A stretch of DNA of 64,000 bases, taken from positions 4,638-68,637 of the IMG/VR virus record IMGVR_UViG_3300020577_009873; one strand, given 5' to 3'. A program made the position numbers and the translations under genes. Positions 19,384-61,205 of this stretch are shown here, one piece after another (position 1 is the first letter of the stretch; each line of letters begins with the position of its first letter). Source of the stretch: a virus. Its lineage: Duplodnaviria; Caudoviricetes. The notes beneath the pieces are model-generated. The model did not search any database and was not told the DNA's origin. It saw only the letters and a list, made by a program, of their open reading frames with translations.

Positions 19384-21591
19384 TTATAATTTTTCCATAA
19401 ATACTGAATCCTCGCTCTTAAATAAATAGTTCTGGTAAGCATCTTCTGCTAAAAAGGAACACATTGGAGCCAGAGCCTTCATAAATCTTTCTAAAGCAAA
19501 TTTCATTACATATTGACATCTTTGTCTTTCAGGTGAGTGTAAATCATATTCATATAAATAAGATTTTGTAGGAACGTCTAAATATTGACTAGAGAATTCG
19601 GTCACCCAAGCCATAAGTTCCTCAAAAACCTTTCTGAAATTCATTTCAGAGTAATTATTTTTAACTCTACTATACATCAACTCACATCTTTCAAGTGCGA
19701 GCAGTTCTTTTTCACCCATTTCACACTGTAAATTGTCAAATCCATACATATTTCCAAGTAAATATTTTAACGTATTTCTGAACTTAAAGTAATATTCACC
19801 ACAACTTTTCAAAACATTTTCACCTAACTGAACATCATCAGCATATGTAACAACAGATGCCCATAATCTCATAACATCACTATTGTGTTTTAATTGCATT
19901 TCTTTAGGATCTACTACATTACCAACTGATTTTGCCATTTTTCTACCGTTTCCATCTAATACAAATCCATGTGATACTAGCTTTTTATATGGTGATTTAC
20001 CGTTCATGGCAACAGATGTTAGCAAAGATGATTGAAACCACCCACGAGTTTGATCTGAACCTTCAAAGTAAACATCAGACTGACCACCAACAACTGAATA
20101 CCAACTAACACCAGAATCAAACCATACATCTAAAGTATGTTCGCATTTAACTAGGCCAAGTCCTTGAAATTCAGTTGGTAATAAATCTTCCTCTGTTCTA
20201 TCAAACCACACATTTGAGCCATGATTTTTGAATAGTGTAACTAAGTGCTTTTCCAAATCTTTATTTAGAAATGGCTTACCATCTTTCATAAAAACTGCCA
20301 ACGGAAATCCCCATTTTCTTTGTCTTGATAAGCACCACCTGTCTCTCGATTTTAGTGTACTTGTTAATCTATTTTTCCATCTTTCTTCTGAAAAGGTAAC
20401 ATCATTCAAAGCAAGTAAAGCTTTTTCTTTTAGTTCAGACAAATTCAAAAAGAACTGCTCAGTCAATTTAAAGTAAACAGGTCCTCCTGTTCTCCAATCA
20501 TGTGGGTAGGAATGTTCATAATATTCAGATTTAAATAGCATATCACCCATTTGAGATACAACCCACTCTGATCCAGCATCTAAGCAAAATAGACCATTTG
20601 ATAATTTACCAGCAGGATCAGTTAAGTCTAATCCGGTTAATCCATTCTTTTTGCATACCTCAAAATCATCCTCACCATGTGCGGGACAAAGATGAACTAA
20701 TCCGGTTCCACTATCTAATTTTACAAATTTATCACAAACTACGAAACCACCACTTCCAAGTTTGTTGCTATATTTTAATCCTTTAAGTGATTTTCCCTTA
20801 TATTTATTAACAACTTCACCATTTAAAAGATGCATTCTTGATTCTGCAACAACATAGGTTTTATCTCCTAATTTTACATCAACATAGTCTCCACTTTTAT
20901 TAACACATACAGCAACATTACCCAATACTGTCCATGGTTGTGTTGTCCATAAAAATAGCTTTCTTCCATCTTCTAAATCAAATGTAAAATAAGCAGATAG
21001 ATCTTTCCTGTTCTTATATTCTAATTCAGCTTCAGCTAATACGGTTCTTGATGATGGTGAGTAGTAAACAGGTCTGCTATCAAGATATAATAAGGAACTA
21101 TTTAGAAAATTATATAATACTTCTAATTGTTTATATTCATAGTTTTTATCCATTGTTAAATAAGGATTATCCCATTCTGCTAAAACCCCAAATGATTTAA
21201 ATGTTTCGTTTTGTTTTTCAGAATATGTTTGTGCCCATTCCTCACATTTATTTCTAAGTTCGGTAGTATTTAATCTACCATATTTTTTTTGTACGGCTAA
21301 TTCGGTTGGTAATCCATGACAATCAGATCCAGGCCTAAATCTCACTTTATCACCCTTCATAAGATGATACTTAACTGTCATGTCTTTTAGTACTTTATTT
21401 AAAAGGTGACCAACATGCACATCACCATTTGCATATGGTGGACCATCATGTAATGTAAAAAGTTCACCTTCATTTCTTTCGTTTCTATTTTTGAGAACAT
21501 CTTTCCATAATTTTAAAAGTTCAGGTTCTCTTTGTTGTGAATTCGATCTTTGTGTGAATTCTGTTTTCGGCATATTTAATGTCTTACTCAT
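19384..21591 (-). CDS. ileS: isoleucyl-tRNA synthetase, C-terminally shortened
   Basis: LHDGPPYANG, HVGH, WTTQPWT, WCLSRQRKWG, EGSDQTRGWF, KMAKS; start MSKTLNMPK lies downstream of the terminator. Confidence 0.95.
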   Translation of the reverse strand: MSKTLNMPKTEFTQRSNSQQREPELLKLWKDVLKNRNERNEGELFTLHDGPPYANGDVHVGHLLNKVLKDMTVKYHLMKGDKVRFRPGSDCHGLPTELAVQKKYGRLNTTELRNKCEEWAQTYSEKQNETFKSFGVLAEWDNPYLTMDKNYEYKQLEVLYNFLNSSLLYLDSRPVYYSPSSRTVLAEAELEYKNRKDLSAYFTFDLEDGRKLFLWTTQPWTVLGNVAVCVNKSGDYVDVKLGDKTYVVAESRMHLLNGEVVNKYKGKSLKGLKYSNKLGSGGFVVCDKFVKLDSGTGLVHLCPAHGEDDFEVCKKNGLTGLDLTDPAGKLSNGLFCLDAGSEWVVSQMGDMLFKSEYYEHSYPHDWRTGGPVYFKLTEQFFLNLSELKEKALLALNDVTFSEERWKNRLTSTLKSRDRWCLSRQRKWGFPLAVFMKDGKPFLNKDLEKHLVTLFKNHGSNVWFDRTEEDLLPTEFQGLGLVKCEHTLDVWFDSGVSWYSVVGGQSDVYFEGSDQTRGWFQSSLLTSVAMNGKSPYKKLVSHGFVLDGNGRKMAKSVGNVVDPKEMQLKHNSDVMRLWASVVTYADDVQLGENVLKSCGEYYFKFRNTLKYLLGNMYGFDNLQCEMGEKELLALERCELMYSRVKNNYSEMNFRKVFEELMAWVTEFSSQYLDVPTKSYLYEYDLHSPERQRCQYVMKFALERFMKALAPMCSFLAEDAYQNYLFKSEDSVFMEKL

Positions 21592-21617
21592 ATTATTTTT
21601 GTTAATTTTTTGAAAAT

Positions 21618-21648
21618 AAAAAAACCCCAAGAAAAATTCCTTGGGGTT
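21618..21648 (-). terminator. ileS attenuator terminator
   Basis: minus strand AACCCCAAG-GAATTTTT-CTTGGGGTT followed by T-tract. Confidence 0.9.
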
Positions 21649-21670
21649 CAATTTTGATAATAGTTATCCA

Positions 21671-21736
21671 TTATCCAATTGGCTTTAGCCAAGGAATCGT
21701 ATAATGAATAATTATAATATTTTTGTGATTAAACAT
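21671..21736 (-). CDS. Ile leader peptide MFNHKNIIIIHYTIPWLKPIG
   Basis: four tandem Ile codons; ATTCCTTGG complementary to terminator arm CCAAGGAAT. Confidence 0.9.
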   Translation of the reverse strand: MFNHKNIIIIHYTIPWLKPIG

Positions 21737-21769
21737 AATGTTTATAGTTTTTTTATCTTTATTGTTTTA

Positions 21770-21777
21770 CAAATATA
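21770..21777 (-). promoter_or_regulatory. Bacteroidota -7 promoter box for the Ile leader
   Basis: TATATTTG on the minus strand. Confidence 0.65.
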
Positions 21778-21801
21778 TGAAAATAAATTGAAAACAAAAA
21801 A

Positions 21802-22788
21802 TTATCTTGCATAATGTCGAATTATACCCCTTCTTAAAATTTCTGCACCTTTTTTAATTCTTTTGTCAATGTATTTGAAAAATCCATCAACCGATAAGCT
21901 TTTAATTAATTCTGGATCAATTGAGGTGTCGGGTCCATTTTCTTCTGAATCTAAAAACTTTGTAATATTATCTGCTAGTCCATTTTTCATTTCTGTTAAA
22001 ACCTCTTCTGGATTCCTATCTGGCATTGACTTCTTAATTTCATCAACTAAAGTTTGCTTAAATGATACAGGATCAAATGATGATAATCTCTGATAAAAAT
22101 CCCAACTTGGTGTTTTCTCTTTCATTTCATCAAATGAGTATTTCTTAGTATATGGGTAAGCGTCTTGAGTCATGGCATTCAATTCATGTCTTTCCGTCCA
22201 ATAGATATAATATCCAAACTCTTTCCACCATATATTCCACACACTATCTGGAACATCCGCAGCATTAACATCGAGTGCGTAGGTAACTGAAGTTGGTATA
22301 ACTGGCTTACCTCTTTTATACCTATTATATCCCTCAAAAGAGTGGTTTAGTTCATGTACTAATCCGGATTCTAATTCAATTTCTAATCCATCAATATCAT
22401 CAAATTTATCCTCATTTATAATACCACCGACTTCAATTTTTAAAAGTGATTTTCCATCCTCTGTTTCCTCAAAATCTTCACAAGCTCCAGTGGTTGTAAA
22501 ATGTTTTCCTCTTGAACTTATTGTAGGAAATTTATTAGTAAACTCTTCATTAGAAATTTTGTCAAATGTAACTAAAAGTTCAATTTTTGTAATTGGGTAT
22601 TTATCTGTTACGGCTGATGCAATTTCTTCTTCAAATTCTAATTTTTCCTCAAATTTTGATACATCTTTGGAATAAAAGTCTTGGAATTTTTCCTTGACAT
22701 ATTTCATTAATATATCACTATACTTCAATGTTTCTTCCGAAACACCAAGTTTTTCGAGTATAAAATCTTGGAATTTAAAAATTTTCAT
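21802..22788 (-). CDS. HExxH putative metallopeptidase with N-terminal MKIFKFQDFILE tag
   Basis: LVHELNH and a downstream ELNA. Confidence 0.65.
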   Translation of the reverse strand: MKIFKFQDFILEKLGVSEETLKYSDILMKYVKEKFQDFYSKDVSKFEEKLEFEEEIASAVTDKYPITKIELLVTFDKISNEEFTNKFPTISSRGKHFTTTGACEDFEETEDGKSLLKIEVGGIINEDKFDDIDGLEIELESGLVHELNHSFEGYNRYKRGKPVIPTSVTYALDVNAADVPDSVWNIWWKEFGYYIYWTERHELNAMTQDAYPYTKKYSFDEMKEKTPSWDFYQRLSSFDPVSFKQTLVDEIKKSMPDRNPEEVLTEMKNGLADNITKFLDSEENGPDTSIDPELIKSLSVDGFFKYIDKRIKKGAEILRRGIIRHYAR

Positions 22789-22818
22789 ATATTATATATT
22801 AATATATAATATTCTAAA

Positions 22819-23361
22819 ATGAAATATATTAAAACATATGAAGACCATGAAGATTTACTTAATTCACTTAAAAAATTAAGTGATCAAATGAGTAGATTAA
22901 AAATCTTAACAAAGATGGATATTCGTCATAAAACTCCGAAAGAGATATATGAAGATTTCTTCTTAGAATTTAAAGAATCAGAAGGATTCAAAATAGAGAT
23001 TCACGGACGTAGCAACAACGGCATAGGTCCTATAAGCGTTGACTTATATAATATGATCGATAAAGATATTATAGAATCTGAATTTTATAGATATGTTGAT
23101 AAATTGAAGTCAATTAAAAGTAGGTTAGAAAATTATATGAATTTTGATTGTCATTTTACGATATCATTAAATGGTAAAGAACAAAATGTACAAGTAGGAT
23201 ATGACCGAAGAAATGATGAATTTAAATTTTCAGGACTAGGTGATAAAAAAAGCGGATATGATGGAAATGGACAATATTATACAAATATCAATGGTATCGC
23301 TGGATCTAAAAATTTTCCAGATGATAAAGTTTCTATGATAATAAAATTTTATATCATTTAA
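22819..23361 (+). CDS. hypothetical protein with N-terminal MKYIKTYE tag
   Basis: AATATATA upstream. Confidence 0.75.
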   Translation: MKYIKTYEDHEDLLNSLKKLSDQMSRLKILTKMDIRHKTPKEIYEDFFLEFKESEGFKIEIHGRSNNGIGPISVDLYNMIDKDIIESEFYRYVDKLKSIKSRLENYMNFDCHFTISLNGKEQNVQVGYDRRNDEFKFSGLGDKKSGYDGNGQYYTNINGIAGSKNFPDDKVSMIIKFYII

Positions 23362-24200
23362 ATTTTCTCACCCTTTGTCTCATCATAGTATCTCCATGTA
23401 AATCCTTTAACAATTATAAATTTTCCATTTTTCTTATTTAATTTTCTCCTGCAACAAGAAATTAAATTAGATTTACCAATATCATTGTTAGATGATGCTT
23501 CTCTAATAGAATCATATATTTGTAGTAATCTACCATTCAAATCATATTTACAAACTTTTCTACTATTAGCCTGTATATTTTTGTTATATGGGACATAATC
23601 AAATTTGTCTCCCTTGTATCTAAATGTTGTTGATGTTATATCATCTTCCTTTCTCCAAAAATGTTTACCACCAACAGTATAGTATGATTTTTTTTTACAA
23701 CACAATGATATTAGATATATATGATTTCCTGATTTTCTACTAGCATCTATCAAAGATTCATATTCATTTAAAATATTTCCATTTAGGTCATATTCTATAA
23801 CAGGAGTCATATATTTATATTTGGAATCATGTATTTTCTTTTTTGATGAATCTTTATGTTTTCTGCCATTCCAGTCAACACCAAATTCACCACCTTCGCT
23901 AAGGTTTGTTAGTCGAAATCCATCATCTTTAAATTTCCTAACCCAATATATTTCTAATTCATTTACATTTGATGAATCACATTCCTGAATAATGTTCATT
24001 ATTGGTTTTTCTCCAACTTTCAAAAGTGATTTTATCCAATTAGATTTATGTGTATTTTTATCATATTTTTCTAGATAACACTTTTGTAAATGCCGTTTAT
24101 ATCTATTTTTTGGATTATTAGTTTTCCCAATATATCTAACTTCATTGGTAATTGGATCTGAAAGTGAATAAATAAATTGTTTCTTTAATATTTTTTCCAT
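23358..24200 (-). mobile_element. GIY-YIG homing endonuclease with NUMOD1 repeats
   Basis: FIYSL...RYIGKT; two YDLNG...Y.S..EAS modules. Confidence 0.85.
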
Positions 24201-24256
24201 AATTTTGTTTTTGATATTTTATATATATATTATATAAATAAACTAGATACTCCTAT

Positions 24257-25876
24257 ATGAAATACATTAAAAAACGAAATAGTTTCTTAAAAGAAAGTAA
24301 GACTATGAAAGATGATGCTCTACACATCTTGGCAACACATGATGACAACCAATCCTCTGATATTAAAGAGGTTTTAGATGACCTAGATAAAACAAAAGTT
24401 TCCTCTAGGGTTATTACCAGGTTTGCCCCTTCTCCAACTGGAAAACTTCACATTGGGGGAATACGCACTGCATTATATAACTATCTATTTGCTAAAAAGC
24501 ACAATGGTATATTTTATGTTCGTATAGAAGATACTGATCAAAAAAGATTCGACTCTGAAGCAGAAGATTATATTAAGAACGCGTTAGAATGGGTTGGTAT
24601 TGAAACAGATTGGGATCCATGGAAGGGGGGTCCAAATGGTCCTTATCGCCAATCCGAAAGGGATTATACTGGACACATCAAAACTCTATTGGATGCTGGT
24701 CATGCTTATTATGCTTTTGATACTGAACAAGATTTAAATTTAGTAAGAAAGGATAATCAAAACTTTGCCTATGATGTAAAGTCAAGAATGAATATGAAAA
24801 ACTCTCTTTCTTTATCAAAAGAAGAAGTTGATAAATTACTTGAAAATAAAGCACCATATGTAATTAGATTTAAGGTTCCTGAAAACAAAACTATTAAATT
24901 TACTGATATCGTTAGAGGTGATGTTTCTTTTAATAGTGCTCAAGTTGATGATAAGGTATTAGTTAAATCAAATGGTATTCCTACTTATCATATGGCATCC
25001 GTATGTGATGATCATGATATGGGAACAACACACGTTATTAGAGGTGAAGAGTGGCTACCGTCTGCCCCATTACATGTCATGTTATATGAAGCATTTGGTT
25101 GGGATGCCCCGCAATTTGCTCACTTACCTTCAATTCTTAAGCCAGATGGTAAAGGAAAACTTTCAAAAAGGGATGGACTCAAATTAGGTATTCCAGTATT
25201 TCCATTTGGTGGAGAGGGAGTAGATGATAAAGGAAATACCGTTAAATATAAAGGATTTAAAGACGAAGGATTTGAACCAGACGCACTTGTAAACTTCTTA
25301 TTGTTATTAGGATGGGCACCAAGTGATGGTAAAGAAATTTATAATTTAGCTGAAATGATTTCTGACTTCTCTCTTGATAGAGTTCATAAAGCAGGAGCTA
25401 GATTTGATATGGATAAAGCAAAGTGGTTTAATAGTGGATATCTTCAAAATAAATCAGATGCTGAATTATTAAGTCATATTGATATGGGTAACACCTATAA
25501 ATATGATGATGATAAATTATCAATGATTGTTGATTTGTGTAAAAAGAGAAGCACTTTTAAAACTGATATGCAGGTTGTTGCTGATATCTTCTTTAAACCA
25601 GTAATTCTTGGAGAAAAGGAATTAAAAAGCTTATCAGAAGACTATAAAAAAGTTTTTGTAGACTTTGTTGAAAAAGCATCATCAATTGATTGGGAAATGG
25701 AAAAGGTTAAACAATTAATTTTTGATATCTGTGCAGAAAAAGGAATTAAAATGGGTAAAGTAATGCCGTCATTAAGAATGTCTGTTACGGGTGGTGTCCC
25801 AGGACCAGATTTAATGACCACAATGTTTATTTTAGGAAAAGAAGAAAGCCTAAAAAGAATTAAAAATTCTTTATAA
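24257..25876 (+). CDS. gltX: glutamyl-tRNA synthetase with ~50-aa N-terminal extension
   Basis: TRFAPSPTG, HIGG, RIEDTD, YRQSER, HVIRGEEW, KLSKR. Confidence 0.95.
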   Translation: MKYIKKRNSFLKESKTMKDDALHILATHDDNQSSDIKEVLDDLDKTKVSSRVITRFAPSPTGKLHIGGIRTALYNYLFAKKHNGIFYVRIEDTDQKRFDSEAEDYIKNALEWVGIETDWDPWKGGPNGPYRQSERDYTGHIKTLLDAGHAYYAFDTEQDLNLVRKDNQNFAYDVKSRMNMKNSLSLSKEEVDKLLENKAPYVIRFKVPENKTIKFTDIVRGDVSFNSAQVDDKVLVKSNGIPTYHMASVCDDHDMGTTHVIRGEEWLPSAPLHVMLYEAFGWDAPQFAHLPSILKPDGKGKLSKRDGLKLGIPVFPFGGEGVDDKGNTVKYKGFKDEGFEPDALVNFLLLLGWAPSDGKEIYNLAEMISDFSLDRVHKAGARFDMDKAKWFNSGYLQNKSDAELLSHIDMGNTYKYDDDKLSMIVDLCKKRSTFKTDMQVVADIFFKPVILGEKELKSLSEDYKKVFVDFVEKASSIDWEMEKVKQLIFDICAEKGIKMGKVMPSLRMSVTGGVPGPDLMTTMFILGKEESLKRIKNSL

Positions 25877-25887
25877 AAAATAGGATA

Positions 25888-26229
25888 ATGATGAATATTA
25901 GAAAATTTAATGAAATGGATACATTCAATATTACATTCTCTTCTAAAGAAGAATTTATAAAATTTTGGAGTGATAGATGGAAAGGAACTAATGCGGAAAA
26001 GTTTCCAAAAGAATTTATAGAAACTTTTGAGACACAATTTGATTATTCGGAATGGGAAAAAGAAAATTATAATTATGGAAGCGAATTTGATGCGGATAGT
26101 GAGATCGAAAATATTGACTCTGAATTTGGAATTGCAATAGGAGACGACGAAGACTGTGATATATCCTCTGATGAGTGGGTTGATTTTTATAACAGTTGTT
26201 GGACATGGTTAAAAAATAATAAAAAATAA
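25888..26229 (+). CDS. acidic hypothetical protein with N-terminal MNIRKFNE tag
   Basis: ORF with shared N-terminal motif. Confidence 0.75.
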   Translation: MMNIRKFNEMDTFNITFSSKEEFIKFWSDRWKGTNAEKFPKEFIETFETQFDYSEWEKENYNYGSEFDADSEIENIDSEFGIAIGDDEDCDISSDEWVDFYNSCWTWLKNNKK

Positions 26230-27023
26230 TGAAATATTTAGAAAGTTATGATGGGTATGGTGAACTTAACGTCGTTTGTGATGAATCTTGTTACTCATTA
26301 GCGAGCACATACCTAAATAAGTTAGATAAAAAATCAACTATATCTAGTAAAGAAGGTAATTCATCTGTTATATCTGCGATTAAAACTCTTATATCAAAAG
26401 GATCTAACAATATTTTAGTTATATTAGATGATAGGGGAGAATTAAAAGATCAAATGGATGAAAGACTTGATTTTTTAAGAGGTTTTATGGGTGAGCGGGA
26501 TTATAAAAAACTCGATGTAAAAATGGTATCTGAATTAAAGATAAGTGAGAGTAAATTATATGAAGAAGCAACATTTAAAAAGTCAGATTTTAATATTTAT
26601 AAAATCAGAGTTTATGCTGATGGTATTGATGTTGTTAAAAGTAAATTTGATGGAGATCCAATTCAACATAATGAAAGAGCTAAGGAATATGTAGACTTTT
26701 TTGGAAAAATGGTTGAAAAAGTAACTGGACAATCAATGAGATATTATTATAACAAATATATGTTCTTTGCAAAAGAATCGGTTGTTGAGTTGTTAAAGGC
26801 TGATTATGATATTCGAGTAGTAGAAGGAGAAGAATATAATTGGTGGTTTGTACCTAAAGAAAATAAAGAAGTATCAGATTGGATAGAAAAAAATTGCAAA
26901 CTACCATTCAGAAAAGCTTTAAGAAGTCCTAATTTCGCTTCTTTAGATAGTGATAGTAGTGATTATTGGAGAAAAAAGGCTGAAGAACTTACAAAGGATT
27001 ATAAAATGAAAAATAATTTATAG
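26229..27023 (+). CDS. hypothetical protein
   Basis: ORF starting MKYLESYD. Confidence 0.75.
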   Translation: MKYLESYDGYGELNVVCDESCYSLASTYLNKLDKKSTISSKEGNSSVISAIKTLISKGSNNILVILDDRGELKDQMDERLDFLRGFMGERDYKKLDVKMVSELKISESKLYEEATFKKSDFNIYKIRVYADGIDVVKSKFDGDPIQHNERAKEYVDFFGKMVEKVTGQSMRYYYNKYMFFAKESVVELLKADYDIRVVEGEEYNWWFVPKENKEVSDWIEKNCKLPFRKALRSPNFASLDSDSSDYWRKKAEELTKDYKMKNNL

Positions 27024-27197
27024 GAAGAAGTAAAACATTCAAAAAAAATTCACCCAAAAGCTTTTAAGGAGTGAGGAAAAAGAGTTAAGATTAGATTTAA
27101 ACTTAATATGGCATGTTTATGAGGATGAGATTACTGATGCAGAAAATTTTTCGGTAATAACAAGATGGTAAAAATAAACTATTTATAAAAAATTTCG

Positions 27198-27205
27198 TAT
27201 ATTTG
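27198..27205 (+). promoter_or_regulatory. Bacteroidota -7 promoter box for the Val leader
   Basis: CG-TATATTTG-T, 4 nt before the leader ATG. Confidence 0.75.
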
Positions 27206-27209
27206 TAAT

Positions 27210-27263
27210 ATGAATATCAATTTAAATATCGTCGTGGTATCAACATCTGTCCGATGTTGGTAA
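27210..27263 (+). CDS. Val leader peptide MNINLNIVVVSTSVRCW
   Basis: GTC GTG GTA tandem plus GTC; GATGTTGG pairs with CAACATC (27241) or with terminator arm CCAACATC. Confidence 0.9.
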   Translation: MNINLNIVVVSTSVRCW

Positions 27264-27284
27264 TTTTTACGCCTAAAATTATAC

Positions 27285-27318
27285 AAACCCCAACATCAAA
27301 AAATGTTGGGGTTTTTTT
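27285..27318 (+). terminator. valS attenuator terminator
   Basis: AAACCCCAACAT-loop-ATGTTGGGGTTT followed by TTTT. Confidence 0.9.
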
Positions 27319-27379
27319 ATTTCAAAAAATAAAAAAACCACCACTGACTAATAGTGGAAATTAAAAAATTAATATATAA

Positions 27380-28192
27380 ATGAAAAAAATAGAAATGATA
27401 ATTTACGGACTATTCTCCTCAGAGTCACCATCTGATATTAGATATATTGGAAAGGCAACCAATATTAAAGACAGACTAAGAAGACATCTATCAAAGTATA
27501 GTTTGAAGAACGATACATATAAAAACAGATGGATAAAATCTGAAATAAATAAAGGAAATAAAATAGAAATTGCAATCATAGAAGAGGTTAGTGAAAGCAA
27601 TTGGGAAAAAGCAGAAATTTTTTGGATATCCGAATTTAGAAAACTAGGGTATAACTTAACAAATTCGACTATTGGTGGAGATGGAATAGTTCCAACGAAT
27701 GAAATTATAAATAAAAGGGGTAAAACCAAAATTACAAACAATTTAAAAAATAAATCGGAATTAATTGAAAAGTTCAATATAAGAGAAATAAATAACATGT
27801 GGGTTGGTGAGAGGGTCTGCCCAAAATGTGGTAAAATAATCAGATATGAATTATCAAATATTAATAAACTAATATCTCTTTGTAAAAAATCTATTGATAG
27901 GAAATGTTTATCTTGTAGTAGTACAGACAAAACACCATTTAGAAATCATAAGTGGTCTACAAAAGGAATGAAATATAAAACCAATAACAGCAAATTAATT
28001 AGAGAAAAATATGGTAAAAAAATACAACAATTTGATAAAGATGGAAATTTAATTGATGAATTTAATTCCATTAGAGAAGCAAATTCAATTACAAAAATTG
28101 ATAGAAAAAGTATATCACAATGTATTAAAGGAACCAGAATAACAGCTGGAGGATACATTTTCAAACAAAAAATGAATAATTATGAAAAATAA
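27380..28192 (+). mobile_element. GIY-YIG homing endonuclease with NUMOD1
   Basis: IIYGL...RYIGKA, NLTNSTIGGDG, FNSIREA...TAGGYIF. Confidence 0.85.
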
Positions 28193-29525
28193 ATTTTTAA
28201 TAGATACTCCCCCACCAACAATTAGCGGAAGTCAAGGACTTCATATCGGACATATATTTTCCTATACACAAGGTGATTTAATTGCAAAATATAAAAGATT
28301 TATTGGCAATGATATTATCTACCCGTTTGGGATAGACAATAATGGCATACCTACCCAAAAAAGCGCATCTAACAAGGGAATAAAAGGAACGAAAGAAATA
28401 ATTGACTTCTCACTTAAAAGGGGAGAAGATTACAAATCAACATTTAAAATGTGCGGCATTACTTTTGAAAATGGACAAGATTATCATACCTATAATAATC
28501 TTTCACTAGATATTTGCTATCAAGCATTTGAAATTTTAAAGAAAAAGGGAATTGCCTATAAGGCAAACACAGAATATCTGTGGTCTGAAAAATTAAAAAC
28601 TTCTATTTCACAATCTGAATTAAATGAAGAAGGATTGATTGAAAGAACTGGAGAAACTCCAATTATTAAAAGTGGTGAGGGGTGGTTTATTAATTTAAAA
28701 GATCATTTGCCACAGATAAAAGAAATGATAGATAAAATAGAATGGAAACCAATTAAATTCAAGAAAAGAATTGATGATTGGATTGAAAATATAAAATGGG
28801 ATTGGTCAATCTCAAGAGAAAGAAATTTTGGAATTCAAATTCCTGGTGAAGAAACATTTACCTTTGATACTTGGTTCATTTCATCACTATCTCCGCAAAT
28901 TGCTTGGTCGTCATATAAAGGATATAATGATATGCTGAATTGTCCAATATTTGATATGAGATTTCAATCACATGATATTATTAGAACTTGGGCATTTTAT
29001 ACAATTGCTATGTCCTATTTTATTAATGGTCAAATTCCTTGGAAAACAATTATGATAACAGGTCATACTTTAGATGGAAATGGGGATAAATTTAGTAAAT
29101 CAAGTGGTAATGCAACTCCGCCAAAGCCATTAATTGATAAGTATGGTATATCAGGAATTAGATATTGGGCTTTTTCTAGTACGTTAGGAACCGATACTAA
29201 GATTGATGAGAATAAGATGAAAATAGGCTGGAGAATTATTAATAAATTAAAAAATGCTGAAAAGTTTATTAATATGCAAATAGAAAATAATTGGATTGGT
29301 GAGAAAGAGGAGTATTATTCTAAGTGGTTAGAACAAAAGAATATGATATTTGAATATTTAGAAGAATATGAAATTGATAAAGCAAATGGTGCTTTATATG
29401 AATTTTTCTGGGACACATTTTGTTCTACTTGGATTGAGGAGTCTAAAAAAGAATCAATATCATTAACATTAATTAAAATACTTAATGAAATAAAAGGTAT
29501 TATAAATTTCATTTATATAAAATAA
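28182..29525 (+). CDS. valS: minimal valyl-tRNA synthetase
   Basis: DTPPPTISG, HIGH, DWSISRER, FDTWF, DIIRTW, KFSKS; Val leader upstream. Confidence 0.85.
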   Translation: MKNKFLIDTPPPTISGSQGLHIGHIFSYTQGDLIAKYKRFIGNDIIYPFGIDNNGIPTQKSASNKGIKGTKEIIDFSLKRGEDYKSTFKMCGITFENGQDYHTYNNLSLDICYQAFEILKKKGIAYKANTEYLWSEKLKTSISQSELNEEGLIERTGETPIIKSGEGWFINLKDHLPQIKEMIDKIEWKPIKFKKRIDDWIENIKWDWSISRERNFGIQIPGEETFTFDTWFISSLSPQIAWSSYKGYNDMLNCPIFDMRFQSHDIIRTWAFYTIAMSYFINGQIPWKTIMITGHTLDGNGDKFSKSSGNATPPKPLIDKYGISGIRYWAFSSTLGTDTKIDENKMKIGWRIINKLKNAEKFINMQIENNWIGEKEEYYSKWLEQKNMIFEYLEEYEIDKANGALYEFFWDTFCSTWIEESKKESISLTLIKILNEIKGIINFIYIK

Positions 29526-29558
29526 AAAAACCCTCAAATTAATTTGAGGGTTTTTTTA
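29524..29558. terminator. bidirectional terminator
   Basis: A-tract, CCCTCAAAT/ATTTGAGGG, T-tract between convergent genes. Confidence 0.85.
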
Positions 29559-29562
29559 ATTC

Positions 29563-30657: not shown

Positions 30658-30709
30658 ACTTTTGTTTTAATACTCTTCTATATCTATATGTATTAAAAGT
30701 TTATATGAT

Positions 30710-31078
30710 TTATAAAATTATGCGAGGTATATTGTTTCGATTCATATAATCTCTAATAAAAATAGCTTCCTCATATTTTTCCTCCTTAACTAGAATCTCC
30801 AATTTTTGATTTAATTCAATCGCTATTTCTTGTGAGGTTTTTTCTTTTTTTATATCATCATCTAAAATTGAATTGAAATATTCATTTAAGTGATTAATAT
30901 CTTTAAATTGAACATCCTTACTACCACTAAACTTAGAATTTAGCAATTTTCGAATATAGAAGTCGTTTAAAGCATTGTTATCTATTAAGTATTTAGCCAA
31001 ATGATATGGCCTATTTTTAAATAGCTTTAATACATTAATTAAGGTCTCATATAGCTTATCTCTATCCTTATCTTCCAT
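30710..31078 (-). CDS. hypothetical protein with C-terminal UVR-like motif
   Basis: LVKEEKYEEAIFIRD. Confidence 0.65.
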   Translation of the reverse strand: MEDKDRDKLYETLINVLKLFKNRPYHLAKYLIDNNALNDFYIRKLLNSKFSGSKDVQFKDINHLNEYFNSILDDDIKKEKTSQEIAIELNQKLEILVKEEKYEEAIFIRDYMNRNNIPRIIL

Positions 31079-31080
31079 AG

Positions 31081-35708: not shown

Positions 35709-35714
35709 TTATTA

Positions 35715-38900: not shown

Positions 38901-38955
38901 TTTTTATATAGATTTTTTTTATATATTAATTTTTACTATCTTTGATTAGTTAATT

Positions 38956-53538: not shown

Positions 53539-53570
53539 TTTGGTGGGTAGAAAAGTTCGCCGTATCTTTG
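53539..53570 (+). promoter_or_regulatory. Bacteroidota sigma-A promoter for the His/Phe/Trp module
   Basis: TTTG-N20-TATCTTTG. Confidence 0.8.
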
Positions 53571-53597: not shown

Positions 53598-53693
53598 ATG
53601 TCATACGTTAGTAAACATAAACATTTTAGCAAATTCCATTTTTGGTTTAGTACCAAGAGTTCGGGAGCTAATATTGTTTTGCCTAATGTGTAA
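53598..53693 (+). CDS. His/Phe/Trp leader peptide MSYVSKHKHFSKFHFWFSTKSSGANIVLPNV
   Basis: 3 His, 4 Phe and 1 Trp within codons 7-17; GAGTTCGGG pairs with terminator arm CCTGAACTC. Confidence 0.88.
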   Translation: MSYVSKHKHFSKFHFWFSTKSSGANIVLPNV

Positions 53694-53716: not shown

Positions 53717-53747
53717 AAACCTGAACTCGAAAAGTTCAGGTTTTTTT
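53717..53747 (+). terminator. His/Phe/Trp attenuator terminator
   Basis: AAACCTGAACT-CGAAA-AGTTCAGGTTT followed by TTTT. Confidence 0.9.
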
Positions 53748-53767: not shown

Positions 53768-54391
53768 ATGAGAGAAATTAAAGAAAATACGTACAAGGGA
53801 ACAAGAATTCTATTAGGAAATGAAAAAAGAGATTTAATTAATAGAATGATAGATGTTCTAAAAGATAGAGGATATATGGAAATTCAAATTCCAATTATTC
53901 AAAATCTAGAAACCTTTAGAAATAAGGTAGGTGATGAAAATAGAAATATGATGTTTTTATTTTCTGATAGAGGAAATAGAGAATTGTGTTTGGCTCCTGA
54001 ATATACCGCGGTAATTCAGTCATTGAGTGATACATTCAAATATAGTAAAGATGTTAAATTGTTCTATGTTCAAGAATGTTTCAGAGGTGAAAGACCACAA
54101 GCAGGTAGATACAGACAGTTTACACAATTAGGTGTAGAGATAATTAATCCAAGTATGGATTATGTTGAAGAACTTTCTTCATTAGCACTCGAACTAGTGT
54201 CAAATGGTAATGTTGATAGATTCAAAGTAGATATGAGTGTTACAAGAGGATTAGATTATTATAAAGATGGAAAAGGATTTGAAATATCCTGTGATGAATT
54301 AGGAGCTCAAAAACAAGTGTGTGGTGGGGGTGAATATGATGGTGGAATTGGGTTCGCGATTGGAATTGATAGAATATTGTTGATTAATTAA
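53768..54391 (+). CDS. hisS: minimal histidyl-tRNA synthetase (catalytic domain only)
   Basis: KGTR, LAPEYTA, FRGERPQAGRYRQFTQLGVE, RGLDYY, GGGEYD, GFAIGIDRI. Confidence 0.88.
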   Translation: MREIKENTYKGTRILLGNEKRDLINRMIDVLKDRGYMEIQIPIIQNLETFRNKVGDENRNMMFLFSDRGNRELCLAPEYTAVIQSLSDTFKYSKDVKLFYVQECFRGERPQAGRYRQFTQLGVEIINPSMDYVEELSSLALELVSNGNVDRFKVDMSVTRGLDYYKDGKGFEISCDELGAQKQVCGGGEYDGGIGFAIGIDRILLIN

Positions 54392-54395: not shown

Positions 54396-54483
54396 GGTGG
54401 TATTAGTGTCAGCGGTGAGTCTGAAAAGACGAGCACGATACTCTGTGAAAGTATTAGCACCGGTTCAAATCCGGTATATCACC
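54396..54483 (+). tRNA. tRNA-His(GTG) with D-loop hairpin insertion
   Basis: G-1/C73; ATACT-CTGTGAA-AGTAT; T-loop TTCAAAT. Confidence 0.85.
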
Positions 54484-54488
54484 CAAAA

Positions 54489-54564
54489 GGAAGCGGTAGC
54501 TCAGTCAGGTAGAGCAGCGGGGCCAAAATCCCGCGTGTCAGTGGTTCAAATCCATTCCCTTCCA
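54489..54564 (+). tRNA. atypical tRNA with 8-nt anticodon loop (contains CCA; identity uncertain)
   Basis: normal D and T arms; GCGGG-GCCAAAAT-CCCGC; bulged acceptor stem. Confidence 0.65.
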
Positions 54565-54569
54565 CAAAT

Positions 54570-54653
54570 GGTGCAGTAGCTGAGGTGGTGGCGAAAGCCT
54601 ATAGCGCTTGGTCTGAAAAACCAGAGACACCGGTTCGAGCCCGGTCTGTACCA
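54570..54653 (+). tRNA. tRNA-Phe(GAA) with D-loop hairpin insertion
   Basis: GGTGCAG/CTGTACC; TGGT-CTGAAAA-ACCA. Confidence 0.85.
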
Positions 54654-54658
54654 CATAA

Positions 54659-54734
54659 GGTGAACAAGCTAACTTGGTAGAAGCGCCAGACTGAAAATCT
54701 GGAGGATCCGGATCGTAACCGGAGTTCACCACCA
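54659..54734 (+). tRNA. tRNA-Phe(GAA)
   Basis: GGTGAAC/GTTCACC with ACCA; CCAGA-CTGAAAA-TCTGG. Confidence 0.9.
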
Positions 54735-54737
54735 AAT

Positions 54738-54811
54738 GGTGTCTGTAGCTCAATCGGAAGAGCGCAAGTTTGTGGAACTTGAGGCAGCGGGATCGAAACC
54801 CGTCAGACACC
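54738..54811 (+). tRNA. tRNA-His(GTG)
   Basis: G-1/C73; CAAGT-TTGTGGA-ACTTG. Confidence 0.9.
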
Positions 54812-54818
54812 CAAACAT

Positions 54819-54900
54819 ACATCCGCTCATAAGCGTGACCAGCCGGTTCCAACCCGGTAATGCGTAAGCGTGGTTAAGAGTTCGAATCTCTTCGGGTGTT
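54819..54900 (+). tRNA. atypical tRNA(CCA) with reduced D-arm and long variable arm
   Basis: ACATCCG/CGGGTGT; GCCGG-TTCCAAC-CCGGT; AAGAG-TTCGAAT-CTCTT. Confidence 0.7.
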
Positions 54901-54908
54901 CAAAACAT

Positions 54909-54979
54909 ACGTTTGTGGTGCAATGGTAGCATATCGGTCTCCAAAACCGCAGATTCGGGTTCGAGTCCTGACAAGCGTA
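54909..54979 (+). tRNA. tRNA-Trp(CCA)
   Basis: ACGTTTG/CAAGCGT; CGGT-CTCCAAA-ACCG. Confidence 0.88.
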
Positions 54980-55038
54980 CAAATAGGAATACCCAACAGG
55001 GTAAAAAATTATCAGATGAAACTAGAAAAAAATGTCAA

Positions 55039-55782
55039 ATGCTAAAAAAGGAAAAAAATATAAAATACCTAGTGGGGATTCAGCCGACAGGGAAGCTAAC
55101 AATAGGTAACTACCTAGGTTGTTTAAAGAAAGGCCTAAGGCTTCAAGAGGAAGGGCATGATGTTACCTTCTTGATAGCAAACTACCATTCTCTAACAACT
55201 GATAGTTATACTGATGTAACTGAACAGGAATTAATTAAATTAGGTTGTAAGAATATAAAAAGACAAATTCCTGAATATACTGAGTTGTTTTTCAAACTAT
55301 GTTGTAAGTTAAACTTGGGAACATTATTGAAAATGCCTCAATATAAAGACAAAAAGGAAAATGTAGAATTTGACTTGGGATTGATGTTATATCCTGTATT
55401 AATGGCAGCTGATATCATCATTAACGACCCAGATGTAGTAATTGTTGGTAAAGACCAAATAGCTCACTTAGACCTATGTAATGATATTTCTAAGAGATTT
55501 AATGGTAAGTATTACAATTATGAATTAGGTGATGTAGATAAGATTATGTCATTGGCTGATCCAACAAAAAAGATGTCAAAATCTTTGGGAGAAAAACATG
55601 TTCTTTATATCTTTGATGAAAACTATGAAGCAAAAATAAAAAAGGCAAACGCCAACGAAGAGGGTCTTGAAAATCTAAAAAAGATTGGAACAGGAATCGG
55701 AGTTGATGTTGATAAATATGAAATGAATTCTGATTTAAAGAAGGCTATTTCAGACAAAATGAATGAAATTTTTAACAAGTAA
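55039..55782 (+). CDS. trpS: compact tryptophanyl-tRNA synthetase
   Basis: GIQPTGKLTIGNYLG, YPVLMAADI, VGKDQ, KKMSKS; the longer track start overlaps tRNA-Trp. Confidence 0.92.
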   Translation: MLKKEKNIKYLVGIQPTGKLTIGNYLGCLKKGLRLQEEGHDVTFLIANYHSLTTDSYTDVTEQELIKLGCKNIKRQIPEYTELFFKLCCKLNLGTLLKMPQYKDKKENVEFDLGLMLYPVLMAADIIINDPDVVIVGKDQIAHLDLCNDISKRFNGKYYNYELGDVDKIMSLADPTKKMSKSLGEKHVLYIFDENYEAKIKKANANEEGLENLKKIGTGIGVDVDKYEMNSDLKKAISDKMNEIFNK

Positions 55783-55786: not shown

Positions 55787-55843
55787 ATGACAACAATTAA
55801 AAACATAAAAAAATCTAAAAAACGAATAAAAATGATTCGATAG
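55787..55843 (+). CDS. Lys leader peptide MTTIKNIKKSKKRIKMIR
   Basis: six AAA codons; TGATTCG pairs with terminator arm CGGATCA; four tRNA-Lys downstream. Confidence 0.8.
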   Translation: MTTIKNIKKSKKRIKMIR

Positions 55844-55862
55844 ATAAGCTATTACCTTAACT

Positions 55863-55898
55863 AACCCGGATCAGATTAATTTTCTATCCGGGTTTTTT
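55863..55898 (+). terminator. Lys attenuator terminator
   Basis: AACCCGGAT...ATCCGGGTT followed by TTTT. Confidence 0.85.
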
Positions 55899-55920
55899 AT
55901 ATATAAAATAAAAAAAAATT

Positions 55921-56343
55921 ATGCAAAAAACATATGAATGCAAAGAAATTAATGGATATGAAAATTATTTAATATCTACAAACGGTGATGTTTATAATAA
56001 AAAAACAGGCCGTAAAATGAAAACTAGAATAACCAAAACTGGATATGTAGATGTTTCTATTTGTAATGAAAAAGGAGCTAAAACATTTTTAATACATCGA
56101 CTTGTGGCGATGACACATATTGATAATGTATTTAATAAGCCCTTTGTCAATCATAAGGATCATGATAGAAAAAATAATAATGTTAGTAATCTAGAGTGGG
56201 TGACAGCAGAAGAAAACTCAAATCATATGTTTAGAAAAAAGAAAAAAGGGACTATTTCAAAAACTAAAATTATTGATATTTATGAAAGTAAAAAATGGAA
56301 AAATGTTGAGGATTTTTATAAAGAAATAATTGATAAATATTAA
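55921..56343 (+). mobile_element. NUMOD4-HNH homing endonuclease
   Basis: YLISTNGDV; IHRLVA...VNHKDHDRKNNNVSNLEW. Confidence 0.9.
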
Positions 56344-56416
56344 CCTCTTGTAGCAAACTGGCAGTAGGCAACGGTCTTTTAAACCGTGGGGCCGGGTTCG
56401 ATTCCCGGCGGGAGGA
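56344..56416 (+). tRNA. tRNA-Lys(TTT)
   Basis: ACGGT-CTTTTAA-ACCGT; T-loop TTCGATT. Confidence 0.88.
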
Positions 56417-56421
56417 CAAAT

Positions 56422-56505
56422 TCCTTCGTAGCAAAATTGGTAAGGCGCTTGACTTTTAATCAAGAGTCCGAAAGGACATTCCGGGTTCGAGTCCCGGCGG
56501 GGGAA
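56422..56505 (+). tRNA. tRNA-Lys(TTT) with long variable arm
   Basis: CTTGA-CTTTTAA-TCAAG followed by GTCC-GAAA-GGAC. Confidence 0.85.
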
Positions 56506-56508
56506 CAA

Positions 56509-56580
56509 GATCTTGTAGTTTCAATGGTAAAACCACTGGCTTTTAACCAGTATTTCTGAGTTCGAGTCTCGGCGGGATCA
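56509..56580 (+). tRNA. tRNA-Lys(TTT)
   Basis: ACTGG-CTTTTAA-CCAGT. Confidence 0.88.
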
Positions 56581-56585
56581 CATAT

Positions 56586-56656
56586 TCCCTCGAAGCATTA
56601 AGGTGATGCTCAAGTCTCTTAAACTTGAGAACACGGATCGTTACCGTGCGGGGGAA
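56586..56656 (+). tRNA. tRNA-Lys(CTT)
   Basis: CAAGT-CTCTTAA-ACTTG; T-loop ATCGTTA. Confidence 0.85.
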
Positions 56657-56674
56657 CAAAAAAAAATTAAAATT

Positions 56675-56911: not shown

Positions 56912-56926
56912 TTTAATATATAATGG

Positions 56927-58284: not shown

Positions 58285-58310
58285 AAAAACCTCTCAATTC
58301 GAGAGGTTTT
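58285..58310 (+). terminator. intrinsic terminator
   Basis: AAAACCTCTC/GAGAGGTTTT. Confidence 0.7.
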
Positions 58311-58380
58311 AAAGTTATAATACGAGATTATAACGTGGCCTAAATGAGTATTCTATATATTATTTTTAATATATAGGGTA

Positions 58381-58848: not shown

Positions 58849-58881
58849 TATATTTAATAAAATTTATTTTATATATAATAT

Positions 58882-59867: not shown

Positions 59868-59872
59868 ATAAT

Positions 59873-59903
59873 TTTGGTGGGAATAAAAAAAATCGTATCT
59901 TTG
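59873..59903 (+). promoter_or_regulatory. Bacteroidota sigma-A promoter for the Ser/Arg module
   Basis: TTTG-N19-TATCTTTG; closely similar to the promoter at 53539. Confidence 0.8.
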
Positions 59904-59939
59904 TGAAAACAAAGGAATAAAAATATAATATATACAATT

Positions 59940-60005
59940 ATGAAAATGGTTAATACAAATACAAGTTCGTCACGTAGTTCTAACAGCTCGAAAATTCGAA
60001 GTTGA
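59940..60005 (+). CDS. Ser/Arg leader peptide MKMVNTNTSSSRSSNSSKIRS
   Basis: 8 Ser codons of five kinds plus CGT and CGA; AAATTCGAAGTT pairs with the terminator arm. Confidence 0.9.
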   Translation: MKMVNTNTSSSRSSNSSKIRS

Positions 60006-60032
60006 TTGTATTTCTATTGCTATACAATATTG

Positions 60033-60059
60033 AACCTCGAATTTAATTCGAGGTTTTTT
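60033..60059 (+). terminator. Ser/Arg attenuator terminator
   Basis: AACCTCGAAT-TTA-ATTCGAGGTT followed by TTTT. Confidence 0.9.
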
Positions 60060-60066
60060 GTTTTAT

Positions 60067-60139
60067 GGTTCCATCGTCCAACTGGATAGGACATGACCCT
60101 GCGAAGGTTAAGATATGAGTTCGAATCTCATTGGGACTT
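60067..60139 (+). tRNA. tRNA-Arg(GCG)
   Basis: TGACC-CTGCGAA-GGTTA; T-loop TTCGAAT. Confidence 0.88.
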
Positions 60140-60145
60140 CAAATT

Positions 60146-60234
60146 GGTGAGTTAAGCAGCTACATTGGAGTGGCGACCAGCTTTGAAACCTGGGTTTCGT
60201 TAAATCGGATGGGGGTCGGGTCCTCAGCTCACCG
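60146..60234 (+). tRNA. atypical tRNA-Ser(TGA)
   Basis: GGTGAGT/GCTCACC; CCAG-C-TTTGAAA-C-CTGG; long variable arm; T-loop GTCGGGT. Confidence 0.7.
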
Positions 60235-60238
60235 CAAT

Positions 60239-60326
60239 GGAGGGATGGCAGAGTTGGTCTATTGCACCTGACTTGAAATCAGGAGGTCGGGCAACCGATC
60301 CGTGGGTTCGAATCCTACTCCCTCCT
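60239..60326 (+). tRNA. tRNA-Ser(TGA)
   Basis: CCTGA-CTTGAAA-TCAGG; long variable arm. Confidence 0.92.
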
Positions 60327-60331
60327 CAAAT

Positions 60332-60404
60332 GTTCTTGTAGCTCAACGGTTAGAGTTTTCCGCTTCGAACGGAAAGGATGTAGGTTCGAATCCTACCAAG
60401 AATT
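60332..60404 (+). tRNA. tRNA-Arg(TCG)
   Basis: TTCCG-CTTCGAA-CGGAA. Confidence 0.88.
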
Positions 60405-60453
60405 CAAAAAAATTGAACTCACATTTTAATATATAGTGAAAATATGAGTTCAA

Positions 60454-61026
60454 ATGAAATACACAGTATATAAAATAACAAATTTAATAAACGGTAAAAT
60501 TTATATCGGAGTTCATAAAACAGAAAATTTAGACGATGGATATATGGGATCTGGTAAAAATATAAAAAGAGCTATTGACAAATATGGAATTCAAAATTTT
60601 AAAAAAGAATATATTAAAATATTTGACAATCAAGAAGATATGTTTAAAATGGAGTCTGAGTTGGTAAATGAGTTATTTTTATCTAGTCGTGAGAATTATA
60701 ATATAATGAAAGGAGGCCATGGAGGATTTGAACATATAAATAAAAATTGTTGGGATAAAGAAAGTAGAAAAAATCATTTACAAAAAATATACAATTTGGT
60801 TTCAGCTGAAAAAAGAAAGGATATCGGAGCATATATGGGTAAAAATTTTGGAGGTAGTAATAGATTAAGAGAGGATGTAATAAATTATAGATTAAAAATA
60901 CTCGAAACAGTTGACATGTCTAAATATGGTTGGGTAGAAAAAGCTAGTAAATTACTAAATATAACCCATACACAAGTTAGGAGATTTGTAAATAAATATT
61001 ATACGGGGGAATATTATAGAAGATAA
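60454..61026 (+). mobile_element. GIY-YIG (Seg-like) homing endonuclease inside the tRNA array
   Basis: TVYKITNLINGKIYIGVH...YMGSG...YN. Confidence 0.88.
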
Positions 61027-61115
61027 GGAGAGTAAAGTAGCCAGGGTGCTACCACCGCCTGCTAAGCGAGTGGATCGGGTAACTGATTACGTTTCGAGCA
61101 CGTTGCTCTCCTCCA
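61027..61115 (+). tRNA. tRNA-Ser(GCT) with 8/4 fold
   Basis: 8-bp acceptor GGAGAGTA/TGCTCTCC, 4-bp T-stem, 5-bp D-stem, encoded CCA. Confidence 0.8.
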
Positions 61116-61116
61116 T

Positions 61117-61205
61117 GGTAAAATACCCAAGAGGATGTAAGGGGCTCGCTTGGAAAGCGAGTAGGTCGGGAAACTGGCGCATGAGTTCGAATCTCATTTT
61201 TACCG
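61117..61205 (+). tRNA. tRNA-Ser(GGA)
   Basis: CTCGC-TTGGAAA-GCGAG; long variable arm. Confidence 0.9.

Follow-up and report, generated by a model that had tools for sequence, protein, structure and literature searches.

Leader-peptide attenuation is the textbook mode of control of the trp, his, leu, thr and ilvGMEDA operons of enterobacteria, and T-box riboswitches sense uncharged tRNA through a terminator/antiterminator switch, by direct tRNA binding and with a conserved fold. Phage tRNA genes are usually seen as aids to codon usage or as substitutes for host tRNAs that have been cleaved, and to our knowledge the control of their expression is largely unknown. In this work, we analyse a window of 64,000 nucleotides from a tailed-phage record (IMG/VR IMGVR_UViG_3300020577_009873), in which five short open reading frames (ORFs), each followed by an intrinsic terminator, precede tRNA genes and aminoacyl-tRNA synthetase genes for the same amino acids in which the ORFs are rich. 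We read these five units as, probably, ribosome-mediated (leader-peptide) attenuators of the trp/his/pheST type, by which a giant phage would control its own tRNA and synthetase genes.

The general model of such attenuation is set out in the available sections of PMC1183508. For synthetase genes, the accessible part of PMC1262725 covers attenuation of pheST in gamma-proteobacteria and its prediction for trpS and leuS of Streptomyces, and it mentions T-box control of synthetase genes in Firmicutes. In Flavobacterium, structured 5' regions lie before synthetase genes and there are hints of leader peptides before amino-acid operons (PMC9723704, available excerpt). The trn operon of Anabaena sp. 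PCC 7120 is an inducible tRNA array (PMC8421152 and PMC10272220, in the portions at hand).

As in the enterobacterial amino-acid operons, the units of the window combine a short leader carrying control codons with an intrinsic terminator whose 5' arm has mutually exclusive pairings, and, as in ilvGMEDA and thr, there are multivalent leaders that mix several amino acids. Unlike those operons, they lie in a phage, their cargo consists of tRNA genes and synthetases rather than biosynthetic enzymes, the sensor would read the function that its own cargo supplies, units can stand in series (that for Lys is nested in the His/Phe/Trp transcription unit) and none of the Rfam leader families gives a match. 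The IleRS and ValRS units follow the pattern that the accessible text describes for pheST, trpS and leuS, namely a leader ORF enriched for the amino acid of the synthetase that follows it, together with a terminator and an antiterminator; they differ from it in that the synthetases are phage-encoded, several of them shortened, and share modules with cognate tRNA genes, and in that such a leader was found at 0 of 69 loci of the nearest cellular relatives of the IleRS. With T-boxes, the units share a terminator/antiterminator switch controlling synthetase genes, but here an in-frame ORF carries the codons and the window has no T-box match. The Anabaena array, as far as the partial texts go, is similarly supernumerary, horizontally mobile, silent by default and induced when translation is impaired, whereas it depends on a protein repressor, TrcR, and on general translational stress, and here each isotype-sorted module would have its own codon sensor in cis. 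Leader-peptide control of synthetase genes is thus known; what would be new is the tRNA-gene cargo and the phage setting, genome-wide and modular. An initial annotation of this DNA knew of no description of such control in a phage or for tRNA arrays. For tRNA genes and for phages, our literature search (which left subscription journals and supplements outside) likewise returned no description of leader-peptide attenuators, and the synthetase half is known in kind from the accessible part of PMC1262725.

Leader codons and the genes behind them

The window corresponds to bases 4638-68637 of a 68.6-kb virus contig with a G+C content of 29.7%. It is most likely a fragment of a giant phage, because relatives of its TrpRS sit on near-complete IMG/VR contigs of 482 and 508 kb (CheckV completeness 100% and 97%). 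The five short ORFs of the initial annotation were all found where it had placed them (Table 1); each starts with ATG, has 17-31 codons and is enriched for codons cognate to the cargo downstream. The cargo assigned to them held for the IleRS, the His, Phe and Trp tRNAs, the TrpRS, four tRNA-Lys and two tRNA-Arg, whereas the supposed ValRS and HisRS can only be called ValRS-like and HisRS-like, and the claim of four Ser tRNAs failed: ARAGORN and Rfam support two Ser (and two Arg), and the other two are non-canonical elements. The His/Phe/Trp leader additionally contains four Lys and six Ser codons that had gone unmentioned.

To quantify the match, we counted the leader residues belonging to the cargo amino acids and shuffled cargos among leaders within one genome. 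For the five units of the window, the true pairing is the single best of 120 permutations. Among two near-complete relatives of roughly 500 kb (G001 and G002), it is the unique best of 5,040 for the seven units of G002, and none of 200,000 sampled permutations reaches the observed score for the ten units of G001, a set that leaves out the L029 unit (an Asp/Asn/Lys-type synthetase behind a leader). Two further units were not scored, L006 (a long mixed leader before an array of 15 tRNAs) and L036. Admitting all candidate short ORFs at each terminator does not alter the outcome, and chance is excluded as the source of the leader–cargo matching.

From G001 and G002, every region with Rfam tRNA matches (68 and 62 matches) was fetched; in these loci, 57 of 61 and 49 of 54 ARAGORN tRNAs, respectively, lie behind promoter–leader–terminator units. 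The control regions of the relatives' leaders name the isotypes of their arrays: Leu/Ser, Asn/Gln/Tyr, Asp/Cys/Glu/Ala, Glu/Tyr/Gly/Ile/Ala, Met/Thr/Lys/Gly/Asn, Pro/Phe/Val, Ile/Arg, and Gln alone. Synthetases are found in matching modules as well, with ThrRS and AsnRS within a Leu/Asn/Thr/Arg/Ile/Val/Met module, ProRS within both an Asp/Glu/Pro and a Pro/Phe/Val module, LysRS and TrpRS within a His/Lys/Phe/Trp/Ser module, SerRS in Ser/Arg, a LeuRS-like gene in Leu/Ser, TyrRS in Asn/Gln/Tyr, and an ArgRS-like gene likewise inside its matching module. Stand-alone IleRS, LeuRS-like and ValRS-like genes of G001 have leaders with four Ile, four Leu and four Val, and a leader of alternating His and Phe precedes a HisRS-like and a PheS-related gene in the same genome. 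A contig that is 98-99% identical to the window and extends beyond it (G006) adds six matching modules: Tyr/Glu; Ile/Gly/Ala, with an AlaRS-like fragment; Leu/Asn/Thr/Ile/Val/Cys; Arg; Gln/Pro/Asp; and Gln. The check proposed in the initial annotation, that leader codon bias should predict cargo isotype elsewhere in the genome and in related phages, therefore comes out positive in G001, G002 and G006.

The match reaches the level of codon boxes for Arg. Arg codons are all AGR (AGA/AGG) where the cargo is tRNA-Arg UCU/CCU (L007, L008), all CGN where it is tRNA-Arg GCG/UCG/ACG (the window and L005), and mixed where both kinds are present (L010). Leaders also follow their modules when these are rearranged, in that the single Glu/Tyr/Gly/Ile/Ala module of G001 corresponds to two in G006, the sibling of the window (Tyr/Glu and Ile/Gly/Ala), each with a matching leader.

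Terminators, alternative pairing and conservation

A G+C-rich hairpin with a T run follows the stop codon of all five leaders after 19-26 nt, with stems of 9-12 bp. Across positions 19000-38999, a consensus scan found 17 terminator-like sites, compared to 5.4 (standard deviation 2.1) in shuffled sequence. Our terminator finder initially missed the Lys terminator because of its 14-nt loop, and it also missed that of L152, whose T tail is weak and which was recognized on visual inspection. All five leader regions fold more stably than each of 200 dinucleotide shuffles (z of -3.8 to -5.4), and their minimum-energy folds comprise an upstream hairpin and the terminator. For the Ile and Val units, an overlap between this hairpin and the control codons is clear. 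The Val unit plainly displays the complete four-segment arrangement, with the Val-codon segment repeating the sequence of the terminator 5' arm, and the end of the ORF and the 3' arm sharing its complement.

As the initial annotation had described, the 5' arm of the terminator is complementary to a segment near the end of the ORF in all five units. Mononucleotide shuffles pairing as well number 0, 1 and 0 of 300 for the Ile, Val and His/Phe/Trp units, and 6 and 8 for Lys and Ser/Arg. Over the window and its relatives, 22 of 29 leaders have an alternative partner of the 5' arm at no more than 15 of 300 shuffles. Between L007 and L008, one three-way compensatory change involves the leader, the 5' arm and the 3' arm. 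Covariation, which the initial annotation had suggested looking for, is thus seen once, whereas the Ile-leader alignment cannot display it in the antiterminator, where CCTTGG, the partner of the terminator arm, never varies.

The Ile and Val leaders are conserved with their genes. A four-Ile leader is present at all eight phage IleRS loci of at least 61% identity and at one of 24 that are more distant or partial. In the alignment, ATA and ATT replace each other without loss of the Ile run, and the codons on either side vary; CCTTGG is conserved as RNA rather than as peptide, because L118 reads it in a different frame. At ValRS loci, a Val-run leader is found in six of six (five by the finder, one by eye), where terminator sequences differ and the partner segments differ to match. 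The nearest cellular IleRS proteins, at no more than 41% identity, come from cyanobacteria, Bacillota and others, not from Bacteroidota, and the same finder returned an Ile-run ORF with terminator at 0 of 69 cellular ileS loci with full flanks (11 with short flanks were dropped beforehand). Acquisition of the leader together with the IleRS gene from the nearest cellular lineages is ruled out, because none of these 69 loci shows the pattern.

A TAnnTTTG box, which we take to be the Bacteroidota-type -7 promoter element, lies within 90 nt upstream of four of the five window leaders and of 17 of 30 leaders overall, for an expectation of 0.075 per leader, and would point to a Bacteroidota host. 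The box of the Val unit is so close to its ATG that the mRNA may be leaderless. No such box was found within 90 nt upstream of the Lys leader. An Rfam scan of the window at gathering score returned 12 tRNA matches only, with no leader family, T-box or other cis-regulatory family.

Table 1 Coordinates of the five candidate attenuator units and of the synthetase, tRNA and endonuclease genes associated with them in the window
Feature	Position	Strand	Details
TAnnTTTG box, Ile unit	21770..21777	-	
Ile leader ORF	21671..21736	-	21 codons; 4 consecutive Ile (codons 7-10, 21718-21707) and 2 more
Predicted Ile antiterminator strand	21699-21688	-	
Ile intrinsic terminator	21618..21649	-	12-bp stem, 4-nt loop, T run
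IleRS	19384..21591	-	735 amino acids from first ATG after terminator
GluRS	24257-25876		full-length; TIGR00464 445 bits, above cut-off
TAnnTTTG box, Val unit	27198..27205	+	4 nt before leader ATG
Val leader ORF	27210..27263	+	17 codons; 3 consecutive Val (27231-27239) and 1 more
Predicted Val antiterminator strand	27252-27261	+	extends into stop codon
Val intrinsic terminator	27285..27318	+	
GIY-YIG/NUMOD homing endonuclease	27380..28192	+	between Val attenuator and cargo
ValRS-like class I synthetase	28182..29525	+	447 amino acids; no stretch matching middle (editing) part of ValRS models
TAnnTTTG box, His/Phe/Trp unit	53563..53570	+	
His/Phe/Trp leader ORF	53598..53693	+	31 codons; 3 His, 4 Phe, 1 Trp in codons 7-17
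His/Phe/Trp control codons	53616-53648	+	
Predicted His/Phe/Trp antiterminator strand	53656-53666	+	
His/Phe/Trp intrinsic terminator	53717..53747	+	
HisRS-like protein	53768..54391	+	207 amino acids; N-terminal part of catalytic core only
His/Phe/Trp tRNA array	54415..54980	+	canonical Phe(GAA), His(GUG), Trp(CCA) and odd elements
TrpRS	55039..55782	+	247 amino acids
Lys leader ORF	55787..55843	+	18 codons, 6 Lys, all AAA; starts 5 nt after TrpRS stop
Predicted Lys antiterminator strand	55832-55840	+	
Lys intrinsic terminator	55863..55898	+	9-bp stem, 14-nt loop
HNH/NUMOD4 homing endonuclease	55921..56343	+	between Lys attenuator and array
Four tRNA-Lys (3 UUU, 1 CUU)	56344..56657	+	ARAGORN 4, Rfam 3
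TAnnTTTG box, Ser/Arg unit	59896..59903	+	
Ser/Arg leader ORF	59940..60005	+	21 codons; 8 Ser and 2 Arg
Ser/Arg control codons	59964-59990	+	
Predicted Ser/Arg antiterminator strand	59991-60004	+	
Ser/Arg intrinsic terminator	60032..60059	+	ends 8 nt before first tRNA
Ser/Arg array	60067..61206	+	Arg(GCG), Ser(UGA), Arg(UCG), Ser(GGA), GIY-YIG gene 60454-61026, two Ser-like elements

Proposed mechanism and its alternatives

The ORFs, the terminators, the alternative pairings, the codon-to-cargo match and its conservation support attenuation at the sequence level. The anatomy, the permutations and the control codons kept through synonymous changes while their flanks drift agree with the initial annotation, which had recognized the layout of ribosome-mediated attenuation. 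That the leaders are translated, that translation is coupled to transcription and that read-through responds to the levels of charged tRNA are steps that we infer from this architecture. Four of the five units would start at their own promoter-like box, whereas the Lys unit, with no box of its own, would have to be entered by read-through from the His/Phe/Trp unit. RNA polymerase would transcribe the 17-31-codon leader and a ribosome would translate it at once. When charged tRNAs are plentiful, the ribosome would reach the stop codon, leaving the segment at the ORF end covered or folded onto the control-codon region, and the terminator hairpin would then form and halt transcription before the cargo. 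When control codons are decoded slowly, through too little tRNA, too little charging or cleavage of a host tRNA, the ribosome would stall and free the downstream segment of the ORF to pair with the 5' arm; the terminator would be blocked, and the polymerase would read into tRNAs and synthetases for the same amino acids. Their products would relieve the stall and close the loop as negative feedback, because tRNAs for the control codons, and the enzymes that charge them, are what the cargo provides. The trigger could be starvation, a codon-usage mismatch or host tRNA cleavage, which the sequence does not tell apart; that the cargo is transcribed only when a pool fails, through starvation or a host anticodon-nuclease defence, is what the initial annotation had proposed and may be so.

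Several observations weigh against this reading. Alternative pairing is only moderate in the Lys and Ser/Arg units, and it is weak in seven of the 29 leaders, with 16 to 61 of 300 shuffles as good. The Lys and Ser residues of the His/Phe/Trp leader have no cargo in their own module, although the Lys codons would make sense because transcription of the Lys unit must pass this first gate. Not every synthetase is gated: the 57-nt spacer upstream of the GluRS contains neither a leader nor a terminator, and the MetRS-like genes of G002 and G003 have no leader. The description of the set as phage-wide, given in the initial annotation, accordingly does not extend to this GluRS, the sole window synthetase outside the leader scheme. 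The L036 unit has a leader without a clear control run. At the level of single codons, decodability over 21 modules is only slightly above expectation (197 of 218 compared to 184.2), and we relied on it for the Arg codon boxes only. Module boundaries were set by hand, taking same-strand features up to the next leader, and counts across genomes are not independent, as the phages share ancestry; for this reason, each permutation test was confined to one genome. Contigs from wastewater RNA libraries, belonging to a strain roughly 95% identical, span the His/Phe/Trp and Ser/Arg units, but they are assembled, may include DNA and cannot show transcript starts, ends or levels.

The same features could be explained in other ways. 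At 29.7% G+C, short ORFs rich in Ile, Lys and Asn are common, and other terminators of the contig also have short ORFs nearby, so that the hairpins might be constitutive terminators or insulators and the ORFs chance frames in A+T-rich DNA. We hold this to be very improbable, given that only 1 of 120, 1 of 5,040 and 0 of 200,000 permutations reach the observed match, that A+T richness does not favour runs of Val, His, Trp, Ser, Arg, Gly, Ala or Gln, that the Ile run is kept in all eight close loci through synonymous changes and that the pattern is missing from the 69 cellular ileS loci. If, on the other hand, the short ORFs were functional micropeptides or arrest peptides, their sequence rather than their codons would matter, and many leaders do share their first two or three residues; yet the peptide is poorly conserved outside the control run, one Ile leader carries the conserved RNA element in a different frame, and composition tracks cargo rather than a peptide family, which leaves little room for this explanation.

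Two further possibilities keep the gating and change what is sensed. The leader RNA might bind tRNA directly through codon–anticodon contacts, in a T-box-like manner and with no ribosome, for which cargo-matched codons would be suited and which has its precedent in the synthetase genes of Firmicutes (PMC1262725, accessible part). However, neither a T-box nor another Rfam cis-regulatory family scores at gathering level in the window, and the matched codons, numerous and contiguous, stand in a reading frame that an ATG opens and a stop codon ends, whereas runs of 3-8 codons would be superfluous for a single specifier; direct binding is accordingly hard to credit. Somewhat less remote, though still improbable, are leaders that are translated and do gate their cargo but report general translation capacity or infection stage, for example ribosome availability. 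Any coupling of a leader to a terminator responds to global translation, and specificity is unproven by sequence alone; still, the leaders are built from the isotypes of their own cargo, down to the AGR or CGN box for Arg, and split when modules split, neither of which a general sensor would need.

Codon-specific attenuation is, for these reasons, the reading that we carry to the whole clade, where we consider it likely, with slightly more reserve than for the window itself, that the giant phages have a modular, self-tuning translation-supply regulon. Nearly all tRNAs and most synthetases would be sorted by amino acid behind on-ribosome codon sensors, with leaders rewritten when genes move, which would replace exactly those tRNAs that the host lacks, or degrades or cleaves in its own defence, and would constitute the first leader-peptide attenuation of tRNA genes. 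If so, the phage's supply of tRNAs and synthetases would be regulated by a closed feedback loop, the amino-acid sorting of the tRNA arrays would be explained, and a textbook mechanism would gain viruses and a further class of cargo. From the leader one could moreover read the likely function of the odd tRNA-like genes and shortened synthetases that follow it, and such units could provide compact, orthogonal sensors of decoding capacity for Bacteroidota.

Cargo and neighbouring genes

The synthetase set of the window comprises IleRS, GluRS, ValRS-like, HisRS-like and TrpRS. Its IleRS scores 666 bits on TIGR00392 (cut-off 621.4), whereas the ValRS-like protein (best match ValRS, 331.5 bits, cut-off 738), the HisRS-like protein (146.1 bits, cut-off 286.75) and the TrpRS (247-289 amino acids; 127.2 bits, cut-off 176.75) fall below the NCBIfam cut-offs while their Pfam synthetase domains score above theirs; we therefore name the 447- and 207-residue proteins only ValRS-like and HisRS-like. 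Shortened synthetases recur in the clade (L005:9850-10485, L010:5303-6004, L027, L028 and L020). ValRS-like and LeuRS-like proteins of 421-519 amino acids have no stretch that matches the middle (editing) part of the models, and HisRS-like proteins of 207-233 amino acids correspond to the N-terminal catalytic part only. The PheS-related protein of G001 (L005 10494-11594) scores 434 bits on NCBIfam NF051887, named 'mystery ligase' by NCBI, and its leader suggests a function related to Phe.

All 13 ARAGORN tRNAs of the window lie within three modules. Besides its canonical tRNAs, the His/Phe/Trp array holds a His(GUG)-like element under the Rfam cut-off, which surfaced in a relaxed Rfam search, a second Phe(GAA) with a hairpin inserted in its D region (labelled Tyr by ARAGORN), a tRNA whose 8-nt anticodon loop contains CCA, and a 97-nt spacer that is structured and likewise has CCA in a loop. 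Within the Lys array, 56422-56506 is an 85-nt tRNA-Lys. In the Ser/Arg array, the two Ser-like elements (approximately 60145-60233 and 61026-61113) have cloverleaf-like folds with UGA and GCU in anticodon-like loops; neither ARAGORN nor Rfam calls them, and the relaxed Rfam search added no Ser. The AGY codons of the Ser/Arg leader would need a Ser(GCU)-like element and, were attenuation to hold, would point to such a function for the one with GCU.

Two of the homing endonuclease genes are recent insertions, because the GIY-YIG gene of the Val unit is absent at that place in a 99% identical sibling locus (L149) and the HNH gene of the Lys unit is absent in sibling locus L003, the sibling contigs being 98-99% identical; both genes would now be under attenuator control. 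In the strain of the wastewater RNA libraries, 422 nt of the His/Phe/Trp tRNA array are swapped for 1,127 other letters and the stretch 55874-56627, with the HNH gene and some of the Lys array in it, is missing; cargo content therefore varies between close strains.

Outside the units, the tRNAs of G001 and G002 are of the CUA-anticodon suppressor type, along with a few lone Met, Cys, Lys and Arg genes. Suppressor-type tRNAs outside gated modules are found in sibling L158 (857-1008 and 12162-12257) and in L013, L021 and L022, both 500-kb relatives included; ARAGORN labels those with CUA as Pyl and the one with UCA as SeC. They may hint at stop-codon reassignment late in infection, and the ORFs of the window read normally under code 11. 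A sibling Leu/Asn/Thr/Ile/Val module contains an RNA ligase gene (PF09414), and a radical-SAM-like gene (under the Pfam cut-off) lies directly past the last tRNA of the L156 module (L156 6548-7159 and 7592-8458 for the RNA ligase and the radical-SAM-like entry). The ligase may serve tRNA repair, which would fit such a setting and proves nothing.

The window further encodes a UvsX-like recombinase, an NAD-dependent DNA ligase and the homing endonucleases. At 49096-50796, it also encodes a 566-residue protein with collagen-like Gly-X-Y repeats, which matches models of the streptococcal Scl and Legionella Lcl adhesins below their cut-offs and may be a phage fibre.

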